NCBI GenBank assembly: GCA_965204375.1
Contig: OZ241986.1
Span: 5,120,001-5,184,000 of the forward strand
Reading direction: 5' to 3'
DNA from: Candidatus Latescibacterota bacterium
Lineage (GTDB): Bacteria > Latescibacterota > UBA2968
Length of the DNA stretch: 64,000 bases
Below are positions 7,602 to 22,192 of this stretch, piece after piece. The translations under genes were made by a program, and so were the position numbers. Below the pieces are notes generated by a model that saw nothing but the letters and a program-made list of their open reading frames with translations, was not told the DNA's origin and ran no database searches. Positions within the stretch are counted from its first letter, which is position 1, and every line of letters starts with the position of its first letter.

Positions 7602-8450
7602 ATGTCTAACCCATTATTACCCACGACCAATGCCGACGGCTTGCCCGTCGTGCCCATGAGTGAAGAGCAGAAATACACATTTGACCTCAAGGGATGGATC
7701 TGTTTGCCCGGCTTGCTCACCGAAGAAGAACTCATACCCGTGCGCGAACACCAGATGAAATTCCTGAACGAAGGCGAAACACTGCCCCCCGATGAACGCG
7801 ACAATCACGGCGGCGCATCGCAAATACTACTTGACCACCCGGTTGTGGTCGGCGTATTAAACGAAATCATCTCACATCAGGCACTGGCAACCGAAGACTG
7901 CTACGGATTTCGGTTCGACCATACGTACACCAGCCATCGACGAGTCGGTCACGACAACTTTCGCCCCCATGGCGGGGGTGGATACTTCAACTTCTGCGGC
8001 AACTCGCACATCTATCAAATGCAACCCGGGAAAATTCACGCGGGATTGATCCGCGTCGTCTGGGAATTGAACGAAGTACGAGAGGGCGACGGCACCATGT
8101 TCTTATCGGGTAGTCACAAAGCCGCATTCCCGCGCCCCGAAGCCCTGAGCGGACGCAAAAGCGACCTGTGGGACACGTATTCCTGCGTTGCGGGATCCGC
8201 AGTAATCTTCACCGAAGCCCTGTGTCATACGGGCACAACATGGGGCAACGAAGAATGGAATCGGTTGAGCCTATTCACCTGTTACAACACCGTAAATGCA
8301 AAATGGGGCAAAAAATGCCCGCCGCCCGAAGTCATTGCCGCCATGCCCCCAAAGCGACAAACCCTGTTCCGCGGCGTCTGGCACGGCATGCGCGAAATAC
8401 CGAATGTGAATAAGTACTACGACGAAGCTAATATCGGGCGCTACGTCTAA
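7602..8450 (+). CDS. Phytanoyl-CoA dioxygenase (PhyH)-like protein
   Basis: QKYTFDLKGW start, LSGSHK, GSAVIFTEALCH. Confidence 0.75.
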   Translation: MSNPLLPTTNADGLPVVPMSEEQKYTFDLKGWICLPGLLTEEELIPVREHQMKFLNEGETLPPDERDNHGGASQILLDHPVVVGVLNEIISHQALATEDCYGFRFDHTYTSHRRVGHDNFRPHGGGGYFNFCGNSHIYQMQPGKIHAGLIRVVWELNEVREGDGTMFLSGSHKAAFPRPEALSGRKSDLWDTYSCVAGSAVIFTEALCHTGTTWGNEEWNRLSLFTCYNTVNAKWGKKCPPPEVIAAMPPKRQTLFRGVWHGMREIPNVNKYYDEANIGRYV

Positions 8451-8468
8451 TAAAAACAGGAGTAACCC

Positions 8469-9113
8469 ATGAACGTATTGATCACCTCGGGCAAAACAGC
8501 ATTGGCCCGGGCACTATCAGCGGATCTGGCAAACGAACACAAGGTCGTCCTGACAGATCTCGTGGAAGTAGAAACAGATTGCGACTTTGTTAAATGCGGA
8601 CTCGGACACGAAGGAGAAACCGAAGCCCTCGTACAGGGAATGGACGCCATTGTACACCTCGCGGAACTGCCCGAAGAACTAAAAAATGATGAACGGGAAA
8701 TAGACTTTCAGACCCGGTGTACTTATAACATCATGCACGCAGCCAAAGAAGAGAACGTACCCCATGTCATCTATATCAGTTCCCTCAGCTTATTCGCGTC
8801 ATGCGACCCCAACTGGAACGTCACAGAAGTCTGGGCACCGCGACCCACAACAGAATCGGGCCCTATGGCGCGCTACCTGGGTGAATTTACCTGTCGAGAA
8901 TTTGCGCGAGAGCATTCAGTCCGCGTAACCTGCTTGCGATTTGGAGATATAGACGGCGATGGCGACACCGCATTGACAATAGAAGACGCGGTAAAAGCCA
9001 TCGGCAAGGCACTCGTGACAGGCGGACCTATGTGGCAGGTATTGCACATGCAATCAGACGTTGAAAATGCACGGTTCTCTACAAACCAGGCAAAGCAAGC
9101 ATTGGGCCTTTAA
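8469..9113 (+). CDS. NAD-dependent epimerase/dehydratase family protein
   Basis: Rossmann-like N-terminus, DAIVHLA, CLRFG. Confidence 0.75.
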   Translation: MNVLITSGKTALARALSADLANEHKVVLTDLVEVETDCDFVKCGLGHEGETEALVQGMDAIVHLAELPEELKNDEREIDFQTRCTYNIMHAAKEENVPHVIYISSLSLFASCDPNWNVTEVWAPRPTTESGPMARYLGEFTCREFAREHSVRVTCLRFGDIDGDGDTALTIEDAVKAIGKALVTGGPMWQVLHMQSDVENARFSTNQAKQALGL

Positions 9114-9126
9114 TGACGAGGTAAAC

Positions 9127-9846
9127 ATGAAAGTCGTAATCTACGGAAGCAATGGCCAGTTGGGACCCCACGTAGTCAAAGCTCTGGAAGGACACGTAGA
9201 ACTGCGCTTGACGGACCTTGAGCCATTTGACACCCCGCACGAAATGATGATCGTAGATGTATCAGACCCTGATGCGGTCACGCGCGCGGCAGAGGGAATG
9301 GACGCGATCATCAACCTATCGGTCTTGCGCCCCCACCGACAGATCGCCTTTGACGTGAACACAATGGGATGTTACAACATCATGCGTGCAGCAGTCGCAC
9401 ACGGAATCCCGCGGGTCATCAACACAGGACCCCACTTCACCGTACAGGGCGCACCCTACGAGGCATTGGATTACCACATCGGTCCCGATGTCCCACCCAA
9501 ACCCAGCACAAATCTATACGCCCTATCCAAGGGCCTGGGACAAGAAATCTGCCGAATCTTTGCCGAGCAGAGCGACGTCTATGTATTGTGTTATCTATTC
9601 TACATCTTCTGCTATCACGACGACCTGTCAAGACCCGGACTGAACCGTCCATTTCTCGTAACATGGCGAGATGCGTCAGCGGCATTCTTGCCGGGCCTGA
9701 CCATCGACCTCAAAACACTGCCCTCGCAATGCGAAGTCTTCAACATCTTTGCAAATCGACCACACCAGAAGTTCTCAAACGAAAAAGCAAAGCGCATCCT
9801 GGGATGGCAGCCGAAAGATGACTTAGAGCATACGTATCTCAAATAG
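9127..9846 (+). CDS. NAD-dependent epimerase/dehydrogenase (uronate dehydrogenase-like)
   Basis: GSNGQLG glycine-rich loop, catalytic YALSK; SD GAGG before ATG 9127. Confidence 0.8.
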   Translation: MKVVIYGSNGQLGPHVVKALEGHVELRLTDLEPFDTPHEMMIVDVSDPDAVTRAAEGMDAIINLSVLRPHRQIAFDVNTMGCYNIMRAAVAHGIPRVINTGPHFTVQGAPYEALDYHIGPDVPPKPSTNLYALSKGLGQEICRIFAEQSDVYVLCYLFYIFCYHDDLSRPGLNRPFLVTWRDASAAFLPGLTIDLKTLPSQCEVFNIFANRPHQKFSNEKAKRILGWQPKDDLEHTYLK

Positions 9847-9860
9847 GGGACTTTTTTCTT

Positions 9861-9903
9861 TGGTCAATTCTGCAGACAGTGTCTGCAGAATCTTCCCTGA
9901 CCA
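9861..9903. repeat. Perfect 12-bp inverted repeat (ATTCTGCAGACA-G-TGTCTGCAGAAT) at the left edge of the methyltransferase island
   Basis: Arms 9867-9878 and 9880-9891, with an outer TGGTCA/TGACCA pair. Confidence 0.7.
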
Positions 9904-10117
9904 ATATCGCCAAGATGTTGTCAAATGGTGTGGATAAAGTCAGAGCGCATCATTGAATTAAAGCGTGAACTGGCCTGGACCAGTTGTACCCCGTCCCAAT
10001 GCAGATTCTTGCCGATTATACCCCGATGCTGTAATTTGTTAAAAAGGCCGCAAATGCCTATAATACGGAAACCCGAATTGATTGATAATTATATGATAGT
10101 CGATAGCGGAGACATAC

Positions 10118-11827
10118 ATGGCACTTCATAGTGCTGAGCAAAATGTCGCAAACAAGCAACTGTTGAATGCTCTGGTGGCGGATCCTACTCACCCCGAAAT
10201 TTCGCGGATCAATCCTCGCCGTCTCCTGGGGGCGTACTACACCCCCGACGCGCTTGCAAGCATTTTGGCAACCTGGGCACTCGCGCCTGGGAGAGGCAAT
10301 GTCCTGGACCCGAGCTTTGGCGGGTGTGCGTTCCTTAATGCAGCGACGACTATCTTGGCTTCCAGAGGGATTTCAGAACCCGGTGAGCGGGTCTTCGGTG
10401 TTGATGTGGACCCGTCATGTATGGAGTATGTACGCAAGGATCGGAATCTCGTCGAAAAGAACTGCATTATTCAAGACTTTCTCAGCTTGTCTCCGAAGGA
10501 TATATCCGGGGCACCGTTTCACGCCATAATCGGCAATCCCCCCTATGTGCGTCACCACTGGTTCAATGGAGCGACCCGAAAGGCAGGCCGGGTAGCCATG
10601 GCTGCCGCAGGAGTGACACTTCCCGAAACTGCGAGTGCCTGGGCATATTTTTTAATTCATACACTGAGCTTTATCGCGAAGAACGGCCGGCTCGCAATGC
10701 TCGTTCCGGAAGCAATCCTTCAGGCTGATTACGCCACTGTCGTCAGGGACTTGCTCACATCCCGTTTTGATCATGTTTGTCTGGTTCACATTCGCGACCG
10801 TCTATTTGAAGGTACAGACGAAGCCGTGGTCGCAGTCGCTGCTTCACAATATGGCGGTAAAAAAGGATCCTTGCGCGTTGAAGCTGTCGAGCGGTCTGAG
10901 GACTTAGAAGCTATCCTGAACACCCCAAAAGGCAGGATTTCTACTTCCCATTTGACAACCCAAAAAGGACGCCGCATTGACCCGCTGACTGTCCAATTGC
11001 TCGGCGAATTGGAGCAACATTCTGCAGTCAAGAAGATCTCCGATGTCGCAACCGTAAGCATTGGTTTGGTCACCGGTGCTAACAAACACTTCATCCGTAA
11101 TGCCAAAAACTTGAAACAACTTGGTATTCCTCACGAGTCTTGTGTACGACTAATTTCTCGTACGCGATGGCTATCAGGACTGGATTTTACTAAAGAGGAT
11201 CTCCAGAAACTCGTTGACGCTGACCAACAAGCCATCCTGGTTCAGCCCACGCCAGCGTGCGAAAATGCTCCCGGCATCAAGCAGTGGATTGCCGAGGGGA
11301 GGGAGGCCAGTATTCACGAACGATATAAATGCACCATACGCGATCCCTGGTTTCGTGTCGATCCAAAGCCCGTACCGGACGCCTTCGCTACATGCGCCCG
11401 TATGGGTGCTCCCTTGCTCGTCCTTAACCAGGCCGGTTGCCAATGTACCAATGCCCTCCATGCGATGTATTTGAATTGCAAAAGCGTTGCCTCTCTACCA
11501 GCCATCGCTGTGGGGTTCCTAACGAGTGTCGTGAGTGTCTGGGCCGAACTCCACGGACGTCGGTACGGAGGAGGCGTCTTGAAGATAGAACCCGGCACGC
11601 TGAATAGAACGCCGGTACCGATGGTTCAGCGTGCGGAAGACGCCTTTAATGAATTGAATAAACTCATTCGAGATGGGCAAGAAGCCGAAGCAAGAAAACG
11701 GGCGGACGATCTCGTTCTTGGAGATCAATTGGGCTTGCCAAAGAAAGATATTCAGCGGCTACAGCAGGCACACATCCAGTTGATGACCCAACGCCGTCCC
11801 ACCAGGAATGGAACCAGCCATGGCTAA
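10118..11827 (+). CDS. N6-adenine DNA methyltransferase (gamma-class motif order, Eco57I/TaqI-like)
   Basis: GAYYTP (motif X), VLDPSFGGCAF (motif I), IIGNPPY (motif IV), IGLVTGANKHF, ELHGRRYGGGVLKIEP. Confidence 0.9.
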   Translation: MALHSAEQNVANKQLLNALVADPTHPEISRINPRRLLGAYYTPDALASILATWALAPGRGNVLDPSFGGCAFLNAATTILASRGISEPGERVFGVDVDPSCMEYVRKDRNLVEKNCIIQDFLSLSPKDISGAPFHAIIGNPPYVRHHWFNGATRKAGRVAMAAAGVTLPETASAWAYFLIHTLSFIAKNGRLAMLVPEAILQADYATVVRDLLTSRFDHVCLVHIRDRLFEGTDEAVVAVAASQYGGKKGSLRVEAVERSEDLEAILNTPKGRISTSHLTTQKGRRIDPLTVQLLGELEQHSAVKKISDVATVSIGLVTGANKHFIRNAKNLKQLGIPHESCVRLISRTRWLSGLDFTKEDLQKLVDADQQAILVQPTPACENAPGIKQWIAEGREASIHERYKCTIRDPWFRVDPKPVPDAFATCARMGAPLLVLNQAGCQCTNALHAMYLNCKSVASLPAIAVGFLTSVVSVWAELHGRRYGGGVLKIEPGTLNRTPVPMVQRAEDAFNELNKLIRDGQEAEARKRADDLVLGDQLGLPKKDIQRLQQAHIQLMTQRRPTRNGTSHG

Positions 11828-14141
11828 GTTCACTGTTGACACCCACTTGTTCCGAGAACTTGGGGAACTACTGGTCGGGCGCGACTCCACAGCCTTGATC
11901 GAACTGATCAAGAACGCCTATGACGCAGATGCGACCGAAGTCACTGTATATGGTGAGCGACTCGATAATCCAGAAGAGGGACATATCCTGGTAACGGACA
12001 ACGGCGTGGGCATGAATACGGAAGCGTTCACGAAAGGTTTTCTGAGAGTTGCTTCGCGTCTGAAGGAACTGGGCGAGCGGCGGTCCATCCTGTTTCAACG
12101 CCGTTACACCGGTGCGAAAGGAATTGGCCGGCTCGCTGCTCATAAGCTTGCGAAAAAACTCGAAATTGATAGCGTGCCACGGCTCTCTGAATTGAATGGG
12201 ACTCGAGAAGCCCTGAATGCCACAATAGATTGGGACGCGATTGAGCAGTACGAAACCCTGGATGAACTTGACTCTACCGATGCGATTCTTCTGAAAACGA
12301 AGCCTATACTCGAGAACACACATTCAGGAACGGCACTCCTTCTATCGCGGTTGCGACGAGCCTGGACCGAGACTGAGCGTGCCAGATTTTTGGCTGAGGT
12401 CCAATCATTTGATCCTCCGTCATTTCTGTGTGAGCCACTCCCGCGATCAATTATCGAAGAGCCATTGCTGTTCGACACACCAGTTGTACGAGACCAGGGT
12501 TCCGATGCCGAAACCTCTTCATTCCGGGTGAACCTTGAAGGGGACTTTGCCGCAGGTGAGGACTACTGGATGCTTATCGCAGAAATGGCTAATTGGATAC
12601 TGGAAATCCGGACGGATCCCAATAACGGACACATAGGCTTTGCAATTGCTCCTACGAAGAGTAAACTGAGGGAAAATCCCAAGATTGAGGCATTCTATCA
12701 CTCCATACCTCATCCTGCACCCGAGCGTGGCCCGCACTTCAATGCGCGTATTTTTGTGAGAGAGGGAGCTCCAAAACTTACCCGAGATCAGCGGGTATGG
12801 GCTACGAACACCAGTGGCGTTCGAGTTTATCTGGAAGGGTTTCGCGTCCTGCCGTATGGAGAATCGAAAGACGATTGGCTCTCCATTGACGCGGACTATA
12901 CGAGACGCCCACGGCAGCTCGAAATGCTCAAGGATATTGGACTCGGCACGGAAGTTTCCGACCCTGATATTGGGCTTGTTCGTGTACCGAGCAACAATTA
13001 CTTCGGTGCGATTTTTCTCACCCAAAACCGCTGTCCTGACATGCGAATCCTGGTGAATCGAGAAGGATTTGTCCCAGAGGCGAGTTTCGAAACCCTGGTG
13101 CAGTTGGTGCGAATGGGCATAGACTTCCTGACTCGCGAGCGTGCAGCAGAGTCCTACGAACGTCGCCAACAACGAAGGGAAAAACGGCGTAGGGGTTCTA
13201 TAAAGGACGATCCCCCTCAGAGTTCCACCGATATAAGTCAGGTGACCAGCGAAAATATTGAAGCACCTGTGTTTTTGGAGCGAATTCAGGAAGCAACACA
13301 TTTAGTAAAAAAAGCTGGTGAACACCTTACCGGCGATGACAAAGACGCGACTAATGCGGCTATGCAGAAGTTGGATGAGGTGAAAATACTCGCTGAAGAT
13401 TATGAAGATTTGATTTCAGAACACATGCTCTTGTATGTCCTCGCATCTGTGGGAACTCAGATGGCCGCGTTCGTACATGAGATCAACGCCTTACTCGGAG
13501 CATCACAAACCATTGAGCTGGTACTTGAAGGGGTACTTGCTGAGGATGGTCTATCGCTTGATGAAAGGCGCAGATTCAGGCGTACCTTAAATGTTGCGAC
13601 AGAACTCAAACGCAGTCTGGAACGTCAAGCCTCTTATTTGATGGATGTCGTGACTGTTGATGCACGCCGCCGCCGGTCTCGCCAACGTTTATGTGAACGA
13701 TTCGATGCTGCGGTTCGCCTTGTGCAGCATCAAGCAGAACGCCGAGGCATCAAAATTGACAATCGAATTCCTTCCGAATTGCGGTCTCCCCCGATGTTTC
13801 CCGCCGAGATTACAGCGATATTCGCCAATCTTCTGACAAATGCGGTTAAAGCCGCTGGAGAGGATGGACATATCTTCGCTTCAGCATCCAGTGGAGATGA
13901 TCAAGTTCGAATTCGCATCCAGAATACTGGTACTGCCGTCCAACTTGACGAGGCTGAGCGTTGGTTCAAACCCTTCCAGTCAACGACATCTGAAGTAAAC
14001 CCCGTGCTAGGCCAAGGGATGGGACTGGGACTGACCATTACACGGAACCTGTTGGAGAACTATGGAGCAGTTGTGAAATTCATCCAGCCAGATAGCCCGT
14101 TTGCAACTGCGGTCGAAATAGCCTTGCCAAGTAGGAGTTAG
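11820..14141 (+). CDS. MORC-type GHKL ATPase fused to a C-terminal histidine kinase
   Basis: N-terminal ELIKNAYDADA, DNGVGM, GAKGIGR. S5-like region GVRVYLEGFRVLPYG..DDWL and NREGF. C-terminal H-box (AAFVHEI), N-box (NLLTNAVKA), F-box (FKPFQST), G2 box (GQGMGLGL). Confidence 0.85.
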   Translation: MAKFTVDTHLFRELGELLVGRDSTALIELIKNAYDADATEVTVYGERLDNPEEGHILVTDNGVGMNTEAFTKGFLRVASRLKELGERRSILFQRRYTGAKGIGRLAAHKLAKKLEIDSVPRLSELNGTREALNATIDWDAIEQYETLDELDSTDAILLKTKPILENTHSGTALLLSRLRRAWTETERARFLAEVQSFDPPSFLCEPLPRSIIEEPLLFDTPVVRDQGSDAETSSFRVNLEGDFAAGEDYWMLIAEMANWILEIRTDPNNGHIGFAIAPTKSKLRENPKIEAFYHSIPHPAPERGPHFNARIFVREGAPKLTRDQRVWATNTSGVRVYLEGFRVLPYGESKDDWLSIDADYTRRPRQLEMLKDIGLGTEVSDPDIGLVRVPSNNYFGAIFLTQNRCPDMRILVNREGFVPEASFETLVQLVRMGIDFLTRERAAESYERRQQRREKRRRGSIKDDPPQSSTDISQVTSENIEAPVFLERIQEATHLVKKAGEHLTGDDKDATNAAMQKLDEVKILAEDYEDLISEHMLLYVLASVGTQMAAFVHEINALLGASQTIELVLEGVLAEDGLSLDERRRFRRTLNVATELKRSLERQASYLMDVVTVDARRRRSRQRLCERFDAAVRLVQHQAERRGIKIDNRIPSELRSPPMFPAEITAIFANLLTNAVKAAGEDGHIFASASSGDDQVRIRIQNTGTAVQLDEAERWFKPFQSTTSEVNPVLGQGMGLGLTITRNLLENYGAVVKFIQPDSPFATAVEIALPSRS

Positions 14142-14143
14142 CC

Positions 14144-15283
14144 TTGATTACAAAAAATAGTGAGAAGCCGTCCATTCTTGTCATTGATGATGAACCTGAC
14201 AAACTGCGCGATAAAGTCGCTATAGATGTAAAAGGCCGTGCAGTGACCGATGTATTCCATCCTCACGACATCGAAATCTCGGACTTGGAGAGTGCTGATA
14301 TAGTTTTAGTAGACTATAGGCTGGAAAATTGGCCAGAGCGAGACGCGCAGGTAGTATCACTCAGTCCCCCAAACGGAATAGCACTTGCGGTTGCGTTGCG
14401 AGAGAAGATGGACCAATCAAAAAAAGACAAATTAACGGCATTTGCGTTACATACGGGTCATATTGAAGATATTCAGGGGCGACTTCCATTAGCGACTGCC
14501 CAGCATGTTCGTGCACAACTGAACAATCTGGAATGGGTGTTTATGAAGAATGAGCCCCATCGTTACGACCAAATGCTCCTTCTTGCGGACGCTGTTCGGC
14601 AACTTCCTGCCCAATGGCCTGAGGATTCGCATAGCTCGGCTTCAATGGTGCAAAAGTTTCTCGATATGGATGAGGACGATAACTCGTTTGAACGCTGCTG
14701 GCGCGACGTTAAAGATTGCCGAGTGCCTGTTGAGGAGTTGTTCATGAAAGGGCACAGCATCCTATTTATTCGATGGTTGCTCCATCAAATACTGCCGTAT
14801 CCATGCTTTCTGTGGGCAAAGCACTGGGTTGCGGCGCGCTTTGGGATTACCGTTAAGGCTCTGGACAAAGTAGTTGAGGGGAATAGCCTTCTGGCGAAAG
14901 ACTTGGAGTCCATGCGCTATTCTGGGATTCTCGCGGGATTTTTAGGAGATAGGTGGTGGCGTGGTGCTATTGAGGACTACGCCTGGAATTTAGTAGAAGG
15001 ACACACAGCTAATGTACAGCAGTTGCGAGATGCTTTAGCCGAGCGTGCAGGTATGGATTTGGATCCAATCAAAGTCACTCCTGCAGTAGTTTGCGTAGAT
15101 ACGGACTGGCAGCCCGCCGCCGAGTTTCTATCGCCAATGACTGCCATAACCCTCCACCCCGACCACTGGCCCCCGTTTGCCGATTCAGCCTATATGGACA
15201 TCAAAATCGTTCGGGATGATTCTATTCTGAAATCAATGGTGGACCCACTTGACCAGCATCGCATTGATAGTGACATAGAATAG
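14144..15283 (+). CDS. Response-regulator receiver domain plus uncharacterised C-terminal domain
   Basis: ILVIDDE acidic pocket, IVLVDYRL phospho-Asp, NG, LHTG and FMK; TTG start with SD AGGAG, 2 nt after the kinase stop. Confidence 0.75.
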   Translation: MITKNSEKPSILVIDDEPDKLRDKVAIDVKGRAVTDVFHPHDIEISDLESADIVLVDYRLENWPERDAQVVSLSPPNGIALAVALREKMDQSKKDKLTAFALHTGHIEDIQGRLPLATAQHVRAQLNNLEWVFMKNEPHRYDQMLLLADAVRQLPAQWPEDSHSSASMVQKFLDMDEDDNSFERCWRDVKDCRVPVEELFMKGHSILFIRWLLHQILPYPCFLWAKHWVAARFGITVKALDKVVEGNSLLAKDLESMRYSGILAGFLGDRWWRGAIEDYAWNLVEGHTANVQQLRDALAERAGMDLDPIKVTPAVVCVDTDWQPAAEFLSPMTAITLHPDHWPPFADSAYMDIKIVRDDSILKSMVDPLDQHRIDSDIE

Positions 15284-15293
15284 GACGACGAGA

Positions 15294-16022
15294 ATGGCTG
15301 GGTTTCGCTTTCTTTCTGCTGAACTAATCCAAGAGACCGAAGTGCTGACGACCTTGTCAAGGAAGTTCCTTGAACCGAATAGTAGGGAGAAGGTTTTCCC
15401 CAGTTTCCTGAGCAATCTCCGAAACATTGGTGGAAAACCCGAAGAAAGAGTTTATTCTTTAACGCTTCAATGCCTTCGCACAATACCAAGCGATCAGTAC
15501 GACAGGAACCCAGGTAAAGAGATATATGCGGTTATTTCAGGAACTTGGGATTTGCGAAGATTAGGGAAGCGAGAGATAGAATTTTGTGGGATCGCTTCGA
15601 CGAGGATCGAGTTGTACGCTTCGGAAAATCCTGATAAACGCCTGGCAATGTGGCGTCTGGAACTGGGTGCTGAGGACAGCCCGGGCTGCTATGTCCACGC
15701 TCATATTCTGGGAGACTCCGCTGATCCTCCATTTCCGAAGTGGGTGCCCATTCCCAGATTGCCCAGCATCTTCATTACTCCGATGAGTGCTATTGAGTTC
15801 GTCCTGAGTGAACTCTTTCAACGCGATTGGGCTCAAGTGATAGCCAGTCGTAATAAAAATGTAAACCGTTGGCGTAACATTCAAACAGATCGGCTTCAGA
15901 AGTTGTTCTCATGGTACAATGACCAAATGGAAAACGCGGATTCCTCTCCGTGGATGGCATTAAAGGAGGCGAAGCCAAAAAGCGACATATTTCTTCCACA
16001 ATCCGGAAGACGAAGATCGTGA
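15294..16022 (+). CDS. Hypothetical protein with HxH and PRxP motifs, last gene of the island operon
   Basis: 242-aa ORF 10 nt after the receiver gene and followed by a terminator; motif GCYVHAHILG...PIPRLPS. Confidence 0.75.
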   Translation: MAGFRFLSAELIQETEVLTTLSRKFLEPNSREKVFPSFLSNLRNIGGKPEERVYSLTLQCLRTIPSDQYDRNPGKEIYAVISGTWDLRRLGKREIEFCGIASTRIELYASENPDKRLAMWRLELGAEDSPGCYVHAHILGDSADPPFPKWVPIPRLPSIFITPMSAIEFVLSELFQRDWAQVIASRNKNVNRWRNIQTDRLQKLFSWYNDQMENADSSPWMALKEAKPKSDIFLPQSGRRRS

Positions 16023-16053
16023 CAAATTAGTTAGAGCCACATCTTGTCGCACA

Positions 16054-16093
16054 AAGACCAATCAAGATCATTGTTTGATTGGTCTTATTTTTT
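16054..16093 (+). terminator. Rho-independent terminator
   Basis: AAGACCAATCAA / TTGATTGGTCTT stem followed by a T-run. Confidence 0.7.
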
Positions 16094-16236
16094 GAATAAA
16101 TAATCTTATACGCAAAAATGCCATTGCAAACCCCTGTTTTCACCCTTAAATTGCAGACATTTTTTAGTTCGTATCTCCGCACATCTGCTGCCATTTCTCA
16201 CCAATAGTCACAACTCCCGTAATAAGGAGAACAAAA

Positions 16237-20590: not shown

Positions 20591-22192
20591 ATGACGACAA
20601 CAGCCATGCGTTTCTTCAACACCGCCGGCCCCATCAAGGCAGAGATGCACTACCACATTCCGCCCCTGGCCCGGCTCGACGTCAATGACCTCCTGATGCT
20701 CATCCAGCAGGAAAAGTACTTCGTCCTGCACGCGCCTCGCCAGACCGGCAAGACCTCCGCGCTCCTATCACTAAGGGACGACCTCAATGCCAGCGACGAG
20801 TTCCGCTGTGCGTACGTCAATGTCGAAATCGGACAAGCGGCACGGGAAGACGTGGGCGCGGCCATGCGGGCGATTCTCAGCGCGCTGGGTCGTGCTGCAC
20901 GCCACACGCTGGACGACCTGTTTGTCTCTCAAGTCTGGCCCAGCATTCTCGATAGCGCCGGTCCCAACGACGCGCTGGGGGAGACCCTTGCACGCTGGGC
21001 CGAATCGGACGCCAGACCGCTGGTGCTCATGATCGACGAGATTGACGCGCTGATCGGCGACACCCTGCTGTCCGTGCTGCGACAATTGCGCGCAGGCTAC
21101 CCGGATCGCCCGCGTCGGTTTCCACAGAGCGTGATCCTGTGTGGTGTGCGCGATGTGCGCGATTACCGCATCCAATCTTCCGCCGAGAATGCCATCATCG
21201 CCGGGGGCAGCGCGTTCAATATTCGCGCCGAGTCCCTGCGGCTTGGAGACTTCTCCCGCGACGACGTCGAATCACTGCTGGAGCAACACACCGCAGAGAC
21301 CGGACAGGCATTCGCCGAGGAGGCGCGCGCCGTGGTCTGGGAACTGACCCAGGGCCAACCGTGGCTGGTCAACGCCCTGGCCTACGAAGCCTGCTTCAAG
21401 AACAAGGCCGGACGCGACCGCAGCCAGTCAATCACCGCCGACGCCATCCAGGACGCCCGCGAACAATTGATTCGCCGCCGCGAGACACACCTGGATCAAC
21501 TCACCGACAAGCTCCAGGAGGAACGGGTGCGCCGGGTAATCGAACCGCTACTAAAAGGATCCGATGAAGCTGGCTCGTTTGCCGACGACGACCTGCAGTA
21601 CGTACGCGACCTGGGCCTCGTGCGCACCGACAATCCAATTGCCATTGCCAACCCAATTTATCGCGAGGTAATCCCGCGCGACCTCACCTACACCACCCAG
21701 GCGGGGTTTCACCATGACCCGACCTGGTACATTGATGCTAACGGCATCCTGCAAGTAGGCAAGCTGCTGGCCGCGTTCCAGGCGTTTTTCCGCGAGCACT
21801 CCGAGCACTGGATAGAGCGGTTCCAGTACAAGGAAGCCGGTCCGCAGTTGTTGCTACAGGCATTTTTGCAGCGCATCGTCAACAGCGGTGGGCGGATTGA
21901 ACGCGAATATGGCCTGGGTCGGATGCGGACGGATTTGCTGGTGGTATGGCCGGTGGGCGGGGATTCCAGCAGGATACAGAAGGTCGTCATTGAGTGCAAG
22001 CTGCTGCACCGGAGTCTGGAACAGACATTGCGCGACGGGCTTGAGCAAACACGCGCCTACATGGACCGCTGCGCGACGGTGGAAGGACACCTCGTGCTCT
22101 TTGACCGCACCGAGGACAAGTCGTGGGACGACAAGGTGTACCGCCGCGACGAAACCGAAGGCGGCGCACCGGTCACGGTGTGGGGGATATGA
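20591..22192 (+). CDS. AAA-like ATPase with C-terminal PD-(D/E)XK nuclease-like domain
   Basis: RFFNTAGP, Walker A APRQTGKTS, Walker B IDEID, C-terminal RTDLLV..VIECK. Confidence 0.85.
   Translation: MTTTAMRFFNTAGPIKAEMHYHIPPLARLDVNDLLMLIQQEKYFVLHAPRQTGKTSALLSLRDDLNASDEFRCAYVNVEIGQAAREDVGAAMRAILSALGRAARHTLDDLFVSQVWPSILDSAGPNDALGETLARWAESDARPLVLMIDEIDALIGDTLLSVLRQLRAGYPDRPRRFPQSVILCGVRDVRDYRIQSSAENAIIAGGSAFNIRAESLRLGDFSRDDVESLLEQHTAETGQAFAEEARAVVWELTQGQPWLVNALAYEACFKNKAGRDRSQSITADAIQDAREQLIRRRETHLDQLTDKLQEERVRRVIEPLLKGSDEAGSFADDDLQYVRDLGLVRTDNPIAIANPIYREVIPRDLTYTTQAGFHHDPTWYIDANGILQVGKLLAAFQAFFREHSEHWIERFQYKEAGPQLLLQAFLQRIVNSGGRIEREYGLGRMRTDLLVVWPVGGDSSRIQKVVIECKLLHRSLEQTLRDGLEQTRAYMDRCATVEGHLVLFDRTEDKSWDDKVYRRDETEGGAPVTVWGI

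Follow-up and report, generated by a model that had tools for sequence, protein, structure and literature searches.

Four genes at positions 10118..16022 of the analysed window (64,000 nucleotides from the genome of a Candidatus Latescibacterota bacterium) form a unit that, as supported by our comparisons of loci and insertion sites, is conserved, mobile and located in a defence hotspot. To judge from its architecture, this cassette varies an anti-phage design under kinase control that is already known; it is not a new kind of system. By analogy with the closest tested architecture we consider it probable that the cassette acts as a kinase-gated, Ambrosia-type anti-phage system with gene 4 as a His/Arg effector. 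The new element here is a probable remote link of gene 4 to the DUF2290 family.

All four genes lie on the forward strand. Gene 1 (10118..11827, 569 aa) encodes a gamma-class, M.Eco57I-like N6-adenine DNA methyltransferase, gene 2 (11820..14141, 773 aa from the ATG at 11820) a paraMORC-like GHKL ATPase fused to a histidine kinase, gene 3 (14144..15283, 379 aa, TTG start) a receiver protein and gene 4 (15294..16022, 242 aa) an orphan alpha+beta protein, the candidate effector. The ORF coordinates confirmed the tight coupling noted in an earlier sequence-only reading, with an 8-nt overlap followed by gaps of 2 and 10 nt. Downstream of gene 4, an intrinsic-terminator-like hairpin with a 13-pair stem and a T run is present on the same strand (16054..16096, the hairpin itself at 16054-16086). 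Since terminator-like sites are not more frequent in the region than in shuffled sequences (5 observed vs. 6.6), the case for a terminator depends solely on where the hairpin lies and how long its stem is. Promoter-like sites (8 found vs. 6.9 in shuffles) were discarded as evidence. The 25-nt palindrome at 9867..9891, proposed together with the terminator as a boundary of the island, does exist but is a dispersed repeat with a second copy (at most 2 mismatches) at genome position 864265; it is unmatched in the other island carriers L059-L062 and probably not part of the cassette. Alignments to empty-site genomes give an insertion extent of 9838..16233: the aligned stretch ends at 9837 and picks up again at 16224-16229, and in one contig 9837 is followed by 11 other letters and then by 16234. 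At this insertion we saw neither a target-site repeat nor an integrase or transposase. The proposed pectin/uronate setting rests on Pfam matches to pectate lyase, Ldh_2 and epimerase; the downstream gene matches only a PD40 propeller.

The four genes occur together in 40 of the 47 genome loci found with gene 3, and two of the seven misses are contig ends. Of the 68 metagenome loci identified through gene 4, 66 have gene 3 ahead of it; in loci with room, gene 2 was present in 38/38 and the methylase in 64/67. A conserved fifth gene was not found in the loci. This gene order recurs across many phyla, more than expected by chance; Rhizobium and Mesorhizobium are among the carriers. Within the genus the cassette is scattered, being present in 4/20 genomes (6/61 with the own genome). 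Fifteen genomes contain both flanks, nine of them with an empty site, four with the cassette and two with other cargo. In other strains the same site is occupied by defence-like cargo, namely a PDC-M07A/PARIS-like ABC ATPase, a HigB toxin pair or a type XI retron-like RT-protease. In four relatives with the cassette at this site, identity is 94-100% in the flanks but falls from gene 1 (88-90%) over gene 2 (72-90%) and gene 3 (66-79%) to gene 4 (58-71%). A conflict system should diverge in this way if gene 4 is its acting end.

Of the tested architectures, the nearest is Ambrosia (AbrR-AbrA-AbrB-AbrC-AbrD) of Pseudomonas aeruginosa, a validated anti-phage system reported across Gammaproteobacteria that combines an N6-methylase, a kinase, a receiver and a nuclease, and requires its phospho-Asp as well as its XRE regulator and its HNH nuclease (bioRxiv 10.1101/2025.09.30.679545). 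The cassette resembles it in the succession of N6-adenine methylase (AbrA), kinase/HSP90-like ATPase (AbrB), phospho-Asp receiver (AbrC) and a small gene; this is a likeness of architecture and class only. AbrC has a winged-HTH output, whereas gene 3 shows weak HTH signals only, AbrD is an HNH endonuclease in place of which the cassette has gene 4, and the four-gene family occurs mostly outside the Gammaproteobacteria. An AbrR-like XRE regulator is absent from the ORFs at 9781-10180, and the upstream ORFs of 60-150 aa that were run against Pfam (163 of 185; 51 of 59 loci) gave no HTH_3/XRE match; HTH_17 was detected in two of them and the transposase HTH_21 in one. In locus L055, which lies outside this ORF scan, a gene annotated as HTH regulator is located two genes past the methylase. 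When 400 genomes from the class of G065 were searched with the gene 2 alignment (matches in 19, one genome unscored, 12 regions fetched), no locus combining XRE regulator, N6 methylase, kinase, receiver and HNH nuclease was retrieved.

Gene 2 matches HATPase_c_3 (PF13589) at residues 24-147 and HATPase_c (PF02518) at 664-770. Its product comprises a GHKL ATPase (1-200), a transducer/S5-like region, a coiled linker, a DHp domain and the kinase catalytic domain; residues 551-758 align to solved histidine kinases. The H-box His553 (codon 13476-13478) is kept in 66/66 relatives, as are E28, N32, D35, D60, N674, N702 and G733/735/737. A TM segment was not detected (maximal Kyte-Doolittle 19-mer 1.33). 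Thr or Asn at position H+4 of the H-box usually supports phosphatase activity. Both are missing at this position in gene 2, and the switch is therefore probably one-way. The middle region is conserved and common to the HEF_HK kinases discussed below, and presumably adopts an S5 fold. Its G333...R342 stretch, compared by eye, is one residue longer than the MORC motif GhXhhpXXRhl (PMC2292703), so that "paraMORC-like" describes the protein more exactly than the "MORC-like" of the sequence-only reading, whose GHKL domain, kinase, H-box His and lack of TM segments all stand. ParaMORC ATPases accompany restriction-modification systems, kinase fusions or receivers being unmentioned in that context (PMC2292703). 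The cassette shares with prokaryotic MORC/paraMORC proteins the N-terminal GHKL ATPase with intact motifs and the linkage to a DNA methylase; it differs in the motif mentioned and in having no helicase partner.

A link between ATPase-kinase, receiver and methylase was already predicted in 2021, when HEF_HK (PF19191) and Response_reg_2 (PF19192) were described beside restriction-modification genes (PMC8011034). As in the cassette, a soluble protein with HATPase_c_3, DHp and HATPase_c is followed by an atypical receiver beside a methylase, and the gene 2 profile matches HEF_HK kinases at E 2e-12 to 4e-28. However, HEF_HK kinases have about 1000 aa and their receivers about 570-720 aa (773 and 379 aa in the cassette), and their usual neighbours are a C5 cytosine methylase and Vsr instead of an N6-adenine methylase and gene 4. 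Gene 2 has no match to PF19191 and gene 3 none to PF19192 (faint in 10/109 members, best E 0.062). In a kinase tree, a quick one of 36 rows in which long branches meet, the family separates from HEF_HK, each forming a group with good support. Membership in HEF_HK was rejected. With this prediction and the validation of the comparable Ambrosia system, the design cannot be called undescribed. A description of this particular four-gene family was not found in print, in a search covering mainly openly available papers.

Gene 1 matches PF02384, PF07669 and PF22837 (N6_Mtase/Eco57I/M_Eco57I_C) as well as the PADLOC model MTase_II PDLC03267 (E 2.9e-94), with motif I at 64-70 and NPPY at 140-143. NPP is invariant in 78/78 relatives. 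The same model was the best or second best match for 9/9 divergent methylases of the family (L033-L047, L055). A BsoBI-family gene following the methylase was dismissed as cognate restriction enzyme, because it occurs in one locus only (L034). The sequence-only reading had proposed that the methyltransferase marks self. In a restriction-modification-like system of this kind, the methylase would guard the host, the GHKL clamp would find unmethylated sites, gene 4 (or genes 3 and 4) would cut and the relay would only license the cut. In line with this, the methylase belongs to one clade throughout and is the best-conserved gene among same-site relatives, and the association of paraMORCs with restriction-modification systems would fit as well. 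The methylase also shifts in position and strand among the 47 loci (30 upstream, 7 downstream, 4 on the opposite strand, 6 without methylase), as a separately expressed guard would; the opposite-strand copies fit poorly to one co-induced operon and count against our favoured model. On the other hand, phage propagated on the Ambrosia methylase alone stayed sensitive (bioRxiv 10.1101/2025.09.30.679545), which by analogy weakens the idea of self marking, and gene 4 has no recognisable restriction nuclease motif. We regard such a system with true self marking as unlikely, though as the strongest of the competing explanations.

The N-terminal part of gene 3 is a receiver: residues 6-158 of the predicted model (pLDDT 84.5) match the receiver fold with a VIA Z of 12.6 (rmsd 2.6, 120 aligned). 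The residues D15/D16, D57 (codon 14312-14314), T104 and K135 are present as noted earlier, with D57 and S/T104 conserved in 92/92 and K135 in 90/92 relatives. Together with His553 of gene 2, Asp57 leaves the His-to-Asp relay residues intact. The C-terminal domain had been described as non-HTH, which is in doubt: this region possibly holds an HTH at about 221-285. One of 16 segments matches four wHTH Pfam families (best E 2.2e-5), and hhalign to five HTH_17 proteins gave a weak E of 0.007 (controls at least 0.23). Nothing significant was obtained for the C-terminus against PDB sequence profiles and no usable match in Atlas; gene 3 relatives were not found in phages.

In Detocs (DtcABC), a His-to-Asp phosphorelay likewise operates directly in anti-phage defence and activates an effector fused to the receiver (bioRxiv 10.1101/2023.01.24.525353). 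Following this logic, the C-terminal part of gene 3 could be the effector and gene 4 a helper, an inhibitor or an immunity protein. The C-terminal 220 residues indeed contain conserved acidic and basic residues (E277, D340, D347, D370, R210, R232, R270, R273), and the plasmid copy L054 has genes 1-3 with an unrelated gene in slot 4, which again counts against our favoured model. But the C-terminal conservation is largely of Trp, Pro and aromatic residues and includes the HTH-like stretch, lone gene 3 copies persist (L020, L022), and it is gene 4 that has an invariant His/Arg pair and sits in the nuclease slot of sister cassettes. An effector role of gene 3 appears improbable to us. A complex prediction for genes 3 and 4 (score 0.06, mark 0.32) gave no evidence either way. 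The cassette is not a Detocs system itself: it has a GHKL sensor end and a methylase, whereas Detocs has a TPR sensor, the stand-alone buffer receiver DtcB and a PNP effector, and neither TPR or PNP matches nor a second receiver gene were found in the loci.

Gene 4 has relatives in 511 clusters (E<=0.001). Its predicted model (pLDDT 86.5) consists of a five-stranded meander between helices. His135 (codon 15696-15698) and Arg155 are invariant in 110/110 relatives. The second His of the HxH motif, by which the protein had been named, is Gln in 91/110, and a metal-binding HxH site was rejected. The earlier statement that no PD-(D/E)XK or HNH nuclease is recognisable was upheld for genes 3 and 4 with Pfam, PADLOC and NCBIfam; HNH was also absent from the 109 and 144 gene 4 family members scanned, which have one conserved His only. 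Foldseek gave no match for the model at E<=0.001 in the PDB and a viral library, and VIA reached Z 4.1 at best, with weak RWD/E2-type rows (Z 3.0-3.6) indistinguishable from noise. Relatives were not found in viral contigs; in plasmids tblastn detected none and the profile one, in L055.

In sister cassettes, the receiver has as its neighbour an MBL hydrolase in L188, and Vsr, either alone or together with HNH, in L175, L192 and L194. A profile of three slot-4 proteins from sister cassettes matches gene 4 with P 96.5% (E 7e-10) and also DUF2290 with P 48.6% (E 1.8e-4, 184 columns; controls at least 0.19). Via these distant sister cassettes, gene 4 is probably a remote relative of DUF2290. The two agree in size and in the motif order R-F-D/R-x-E, His on the last strand, R-x-P, T-P and a following helix. 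This motif, a pattern written after seeing the sequences, is present in 86/110, 9/9 and 3/3 sequences vs. 10/2150 in the background. Direct comparisons of gene 4 with DUF2290 failed (hhalign E 0.14-0.17; rank 69 at best when searched blind), the 236 rows of the bridge profile did not include the DUF2290 gene of the genome itself, and PF10053 did not pass the Pfam cut-off in any member scanned (one of 144 at E 0.085). The enrichment of the gene 4 family seen when searching with the DUF2290 profile includes sequences that are related to one another. DUF2290 (PF10053) forms half of the Helicase+DUF2290 system, validated against T7; in the accessible part of that report, DUF2290 as such is not demonstrated to be a nuclease (PMC9122126). 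Its partner is a helicase, that of gene 4 a kinase relay.

For our favoured model of a kinase-gated anti-phage system, we infer each functional step. The N-terminal GHKL clamp of gene 2 would read a DNA state arising on infection and thereby switch on autophosphorylation of His553, probably in one direction. The phosphate would pass to Asp57 of gene 3, whose probably HTH-like C-terminal part may raise cassette expression or load on DNA. Gene 4, DUF2290-like and with its invariant His/Arg, would be the nucleic-acid-damaging effector, in the slot of the HNH, Vsr or metallo-beta-lactamase nucleases of sister cassettes. The methylase may supply the m6A mark read by the system, which would stand either for "self" or for the target.

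A selfish addiction module, or killing triggered by plasmids or DNA damage instead of phage, would agree with the cassettes on two plasmids, the site shared with HigBA and ABC-ATPase cassettes and the wide sporadic spread; as copies broken by insertion sequences (L008, L023, L028, L030) exist at no evident cost and the closest tested architecture is anti-phage, we give this little credence. That the genes are a housekeeping or epigenetic unit, i.e. an orphan methylase under two-component control without a conflict role, is very improbable given the patchy presence, the fast divergence and the hotspot common to defence cargo, and the island DNA in contigs of RNA libraries, which may hold DNA and cannot show transcription, does little to favour it.

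If the favoured model is right, the kinase-gated restriction-modification-like class would be extended beyond one validated member, to many phyla and with a new effector, and a first handle would be obtained on DUF2290, whose activity is not stated in the accessible part of PMC9122126. With its 5.9 kb the cassette is compact; it is also self-contained and offers four obvious point mutants, so that two questions become accessible to experiment: the signal to which the GHKL clamp in these kinases responds, and the meaning, self or target, of the mark set by the methylase. A more far-reaching proposal, which we put forward only tentatively and hold to be doubtful, is that gene 4, the archaeal and proteobacterial slot-4 proteins of sister cassettes and DUF2290 belong to a single uncharacterised superfamily, made up of His/Arg defence effectors that cut nucleic acids and lack a close solved fold, and that at the same time a MORC-type clamp reads adenine methylation and unleashes the effector by a one-way phosphorelay. 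Were this true, the reading of DNA marks by MORC clamps could be studied on this family in bacteria.

The sequence-only reading had proposed four tightly coupled genes, and both the ORFs and their junctions (an 8-nt overlap, then gaps of 2 and 10 nt) were confirmed. All on the forward strand, they encode an M.Eco57I-like N6-adenine methylase (gene 1, 10118-11827; ORF and family match), an ATPase/histidine kinase that begins with HATPase_c_3 and ends in HATPase_c (gene 2, 11820-14141), a receiver protein (gene 3, 14144-15283) and an orphan protein (gene 4, 15294-16022). Residues 551-758 of gene 2 are alignable to solved histidine kinases, and the protein has no membrane segment, in line with the sequence-only reading. 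No family match was found for gene 3, which was assigned by its structure model (residues 6-158 against receiver domains, Z 12.6, rmsd 2.6, 120 aligned). Gene 4 gave a confident model (pLDDT 86.5) and neither a fold match nor, with its family members included in the scan, a family match. The palindrome and hairpin said to bound the cassette exist, but the palindrome is not supported as a boundary: the genome has it at another place too, and other carriers lack it. At 9867-9891 of the window it is part of a small dispersed repeat, and a second site (genome 864240-864340) shows further degenerate copies in tandem. The window also holds, at 20594-22192, a 532-aa AAA-family ATPase of higher GC, whose C-terminus resembles, by eye, a PD-(D/E)XK-type domain.

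With the gene 3 alignment as query, a scan of a single genome for each species yielded 47 loci from Latescibacterota, Poribacteria, Gemmatimonadota, Acidobacteriota, Myxococcota, Chloroflexota, Actinomycetota, Cyanobacteria, Proteobacteria and others. All four genes occurred jointly in 40 of them, bearing out a conserved set. The seven incomplete loci comprised contig ends (L015, L032), disrupted or rearranged copies (L023, L028, L030) and lone gene 3 copies (L020, L022). The cassettes at L008, L023, L028 and L030 show breaks or rearrangements, in some cases caused by insertion sequences. For the converse test we took the best 80 of 159 metagenome loci retrieved with gene 4, which have 68 distinct gene 4 ends. 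Among these best 80, where room allowed, gene 3 lay upstream of gene 4 in 66/68 loci (and was visible on inspection in both exceptions), gene 2 was present in 38/38, and a methylase was nearby in 64/67, 61 of these downstream. Across the 47 gene 3 loci the methylase was upstream in 30, downstream in 7, on the opposite strand in 4 and missing in 6. These linkage counts and shifting positions indicate a core order gene 2-3-4, relative to which the methylase is mobile. Clustering of neighbours in the gene 3 and gene 4 loci revealed no fifth conserved gene; the window's flanking genes are common to three loci of Candidatus Latescibacterota (L001, L002, L004). Single loci carry an extra gene directly after the cassette: a BsoBI-family restriction enzyme (L034:4924-5787), an HNH_2 protein (L137:3698-4642), a uracil-DNA glycosylase-like protein (L092:12250-12891) and a GIY-YIG protein (PDC-S14; L055:8836-9771). 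The 363-aa database protein P0041, in which the N-terminal ATPase from gene 2 runs into the C-terminal portion of gene 4, is probably an internal deletion or an assembly chimera.

The four-gene cassette is real, mobile and well conserved. Gene 4 was present in 4/20 same-genus genomes and in 6/61 genomes searched, own included. Fifteen of the 20 same-genus genomes yielded both flanking genes, which abut (8-11 nt) in 9, surround the cassette in 4 and surround other cargo in 2. The site is a defence hotspot: among its cargo are a PDC-M07A/PARIS-like ABC ATPase and its partner, a HigB toxin pair, and a type XI retron-like RT-protease that is split. The cargo at L057:381-3884, L058:457-2258, L059:384-2748 and L061:847-1722 comprises a HigA-like ORF, the ABC ATPase with its partner of 187 aa, and orphan ORFs, 432 and about 300 aa long, without Pfam or PADLOC match. 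At L062 the HigB-type pair (486-1219) lies upstream of the cassette and the RT-protease (9222-10988, two ORFs) downstream. Identity between the window and four same-site relatives is 94-100% in the flanks, 88-90% in the methylase, 72-90% in gene 2, 66-79% in gene 3 and 58-71% in gene 4. The kinase-receiver core was found on two plasmids, with all four genes on one. On a Clavibacter plasmid an unrelated 204-aa ORF (L054:8124-8738) replaces gene 4 after genes 1-3; it has no Pfam or PADLOC match and is, by eye, presumably PIN-like. One genome (G016) has two copies of the flanking pair (C1:71373-80962 and 6160417-6162374), one holding the cassette and the other empty, either a duplication or an assembly artefact.

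Residues were counted in alignments of 78, 66, 92 and 110 full-length members (genes 1-4; partial ORFs excluded by length). Invariant are the methylase NPP, E28, N32, D35 and D60 of the gene 2 ATPase, H553, N674 and the G-box glycines of its kinase, and D57 and S/T104 of the receiver, whose K135 is kept in 90/92. The kinase G1 box reads N-T-G instead of D-x-G (N702 in 66/66), a form known from active kinases such as VanS. A kinase without Thr/Asn at H+4 lacks, as a rule, phosphatase activity; this position is Ala, Gly or Ser in 61/66, which suggests that gene 2 may be such a kinase. H135, P154, R155, P157 and W179 of gene 4 are invariant, and its description as an HxH protein does not hold, since the second His is Gln in 91/110 members and His in 13.

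The "non-HTH" nature of the gene 3 C-terminus could not be established. Residues 205-290, the part common to distant sister receivers, are modelled as strand-helix-helix...strand-helix. PDB profile searches gave no significant match; the HTH signals are weak, with one member matching four winged-HTH families and hhalign against HTH_17 proteins giving E 0.007 (controls 0.23 or more). We lean slightly towards an HTH.

For gene 4, an Atlas cluster with 15% DUF2290 members was listed at 0.87, a lead only, and direct tests against DUF2290 failed. The gene 2 alignment, run against 400 genomes, retrieved L184, a distant full member (E 8.9e-9 with the gene 4 profile), and L185, a sister cassette. A further sister on a haloarchaeal plasmid (L183:1631-9862) encodes an N6 methylase, a kinase, a receiver, an unannotated 269-aa ORF (8352-9161) in slot 4, the position after the receiver gene, and a metallophosphoesterase. 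The DUF2290 motif order is plainer in these three slot-4 proteins. Their joint bridge profile aligned with gene 4 across 200 columns at P 96.5% and E 7e-10, L184 being already among the gene 4 relatives. With nine DUF2290 proteins it aligned across 184 columns at P 48.6% and E 1.8e-4, whereas reversed and unrelated controls stayed at E of at least 0.19. The top 440 rows of a DUF2290 profile scan held 49/110 gene 4 members and 1/3 bridge proteins versus 390/35,676 genome ORFs, single scores being not significant and the gene 4 members counted being kin. Speaking against the link, the genome's own bona fide DUF2290 gene (L149, G000:C1:4131779-4132342) was not among the 236 rows listed in the bridge profile search. 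On balance, gene 4 is probably a remote homologue of DUF2290. In the available text of PMC9122126, DUF2290 is part of the Helicase+DUF2290 system, which inhibits T7; that of PMC11381338 reports no protection by one lactococcal homologue. Neither text, as available, names an activity for DUF2290.

Soluble HATPase_c_3-DHp-HATPase_c kinases, encoded next to R-M genes and paired with atypical receivers, were predicted in the accessible part of PMC8011034. The overall design of these HEF_HK/Response_reg_2 elements is common to our cassette family, which, however, matches neither PF19191 nor PF19192, has a methylase of another class and falls in a clade of its own. MORC/paraMORC R-M ATPases are defined without kinase fusions in the consulted portion of PMC2292703, and the likeness to Detocs, as far as its available description goes, is the relay only. 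Ambrosia (XRE, N6 methylase, kinase/ATPase, receiver-wHTH and HNH) is, according to the accessible text of bioRxiv 10.1101/2025.09.30.679545, a validated anti-phage system that requires its phospho-Asp and is induced upon infection. The window's cassette lacks XRE and HNH genes of this type and is thus not classed as a member, but by predicted function may work like it. The available parts of PMC10952713, PMC7159879 and PMC12278908 contain nothing on the four-gene family, and our literature search found no published description.

We consider it fairly likely that the cassette is anti-phage: the GHKL clamp of gene 2 would sense DNA state, phosphate would pass from His553 to Asp57 of gene 3, and gene 4 would act as effector. 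The last step is proposed because nucleases (MBL, Vsr, HNH) occupy slot 4 in some of the sister cassettes retrieved. In a further set of GHKL-kinase/receiver cassettes (L186-L195) the partners are C5 methylase, Vsr, HNH or metallo-beta-lactamase; BbrUII-like GHKL genes also occur there. That the methylase marks self, as first supposed, would fit its separate orientation in some loci, but is improbable given Ambrosia, whose methylase gave phage no protection (bioRxiv 10.1101/2025.09.30.679545, available text). Still more doubtful is gene 3, with its possible HTH, as the effector, and a shade less likely again an addiction or anti-plasmid module; plain regulation we regard as very unlikely. Under the preferred anti-phage reading, the weight of the finding comes mainly from the putative orphan effector gene 4 and its probable tie to DUF2290.
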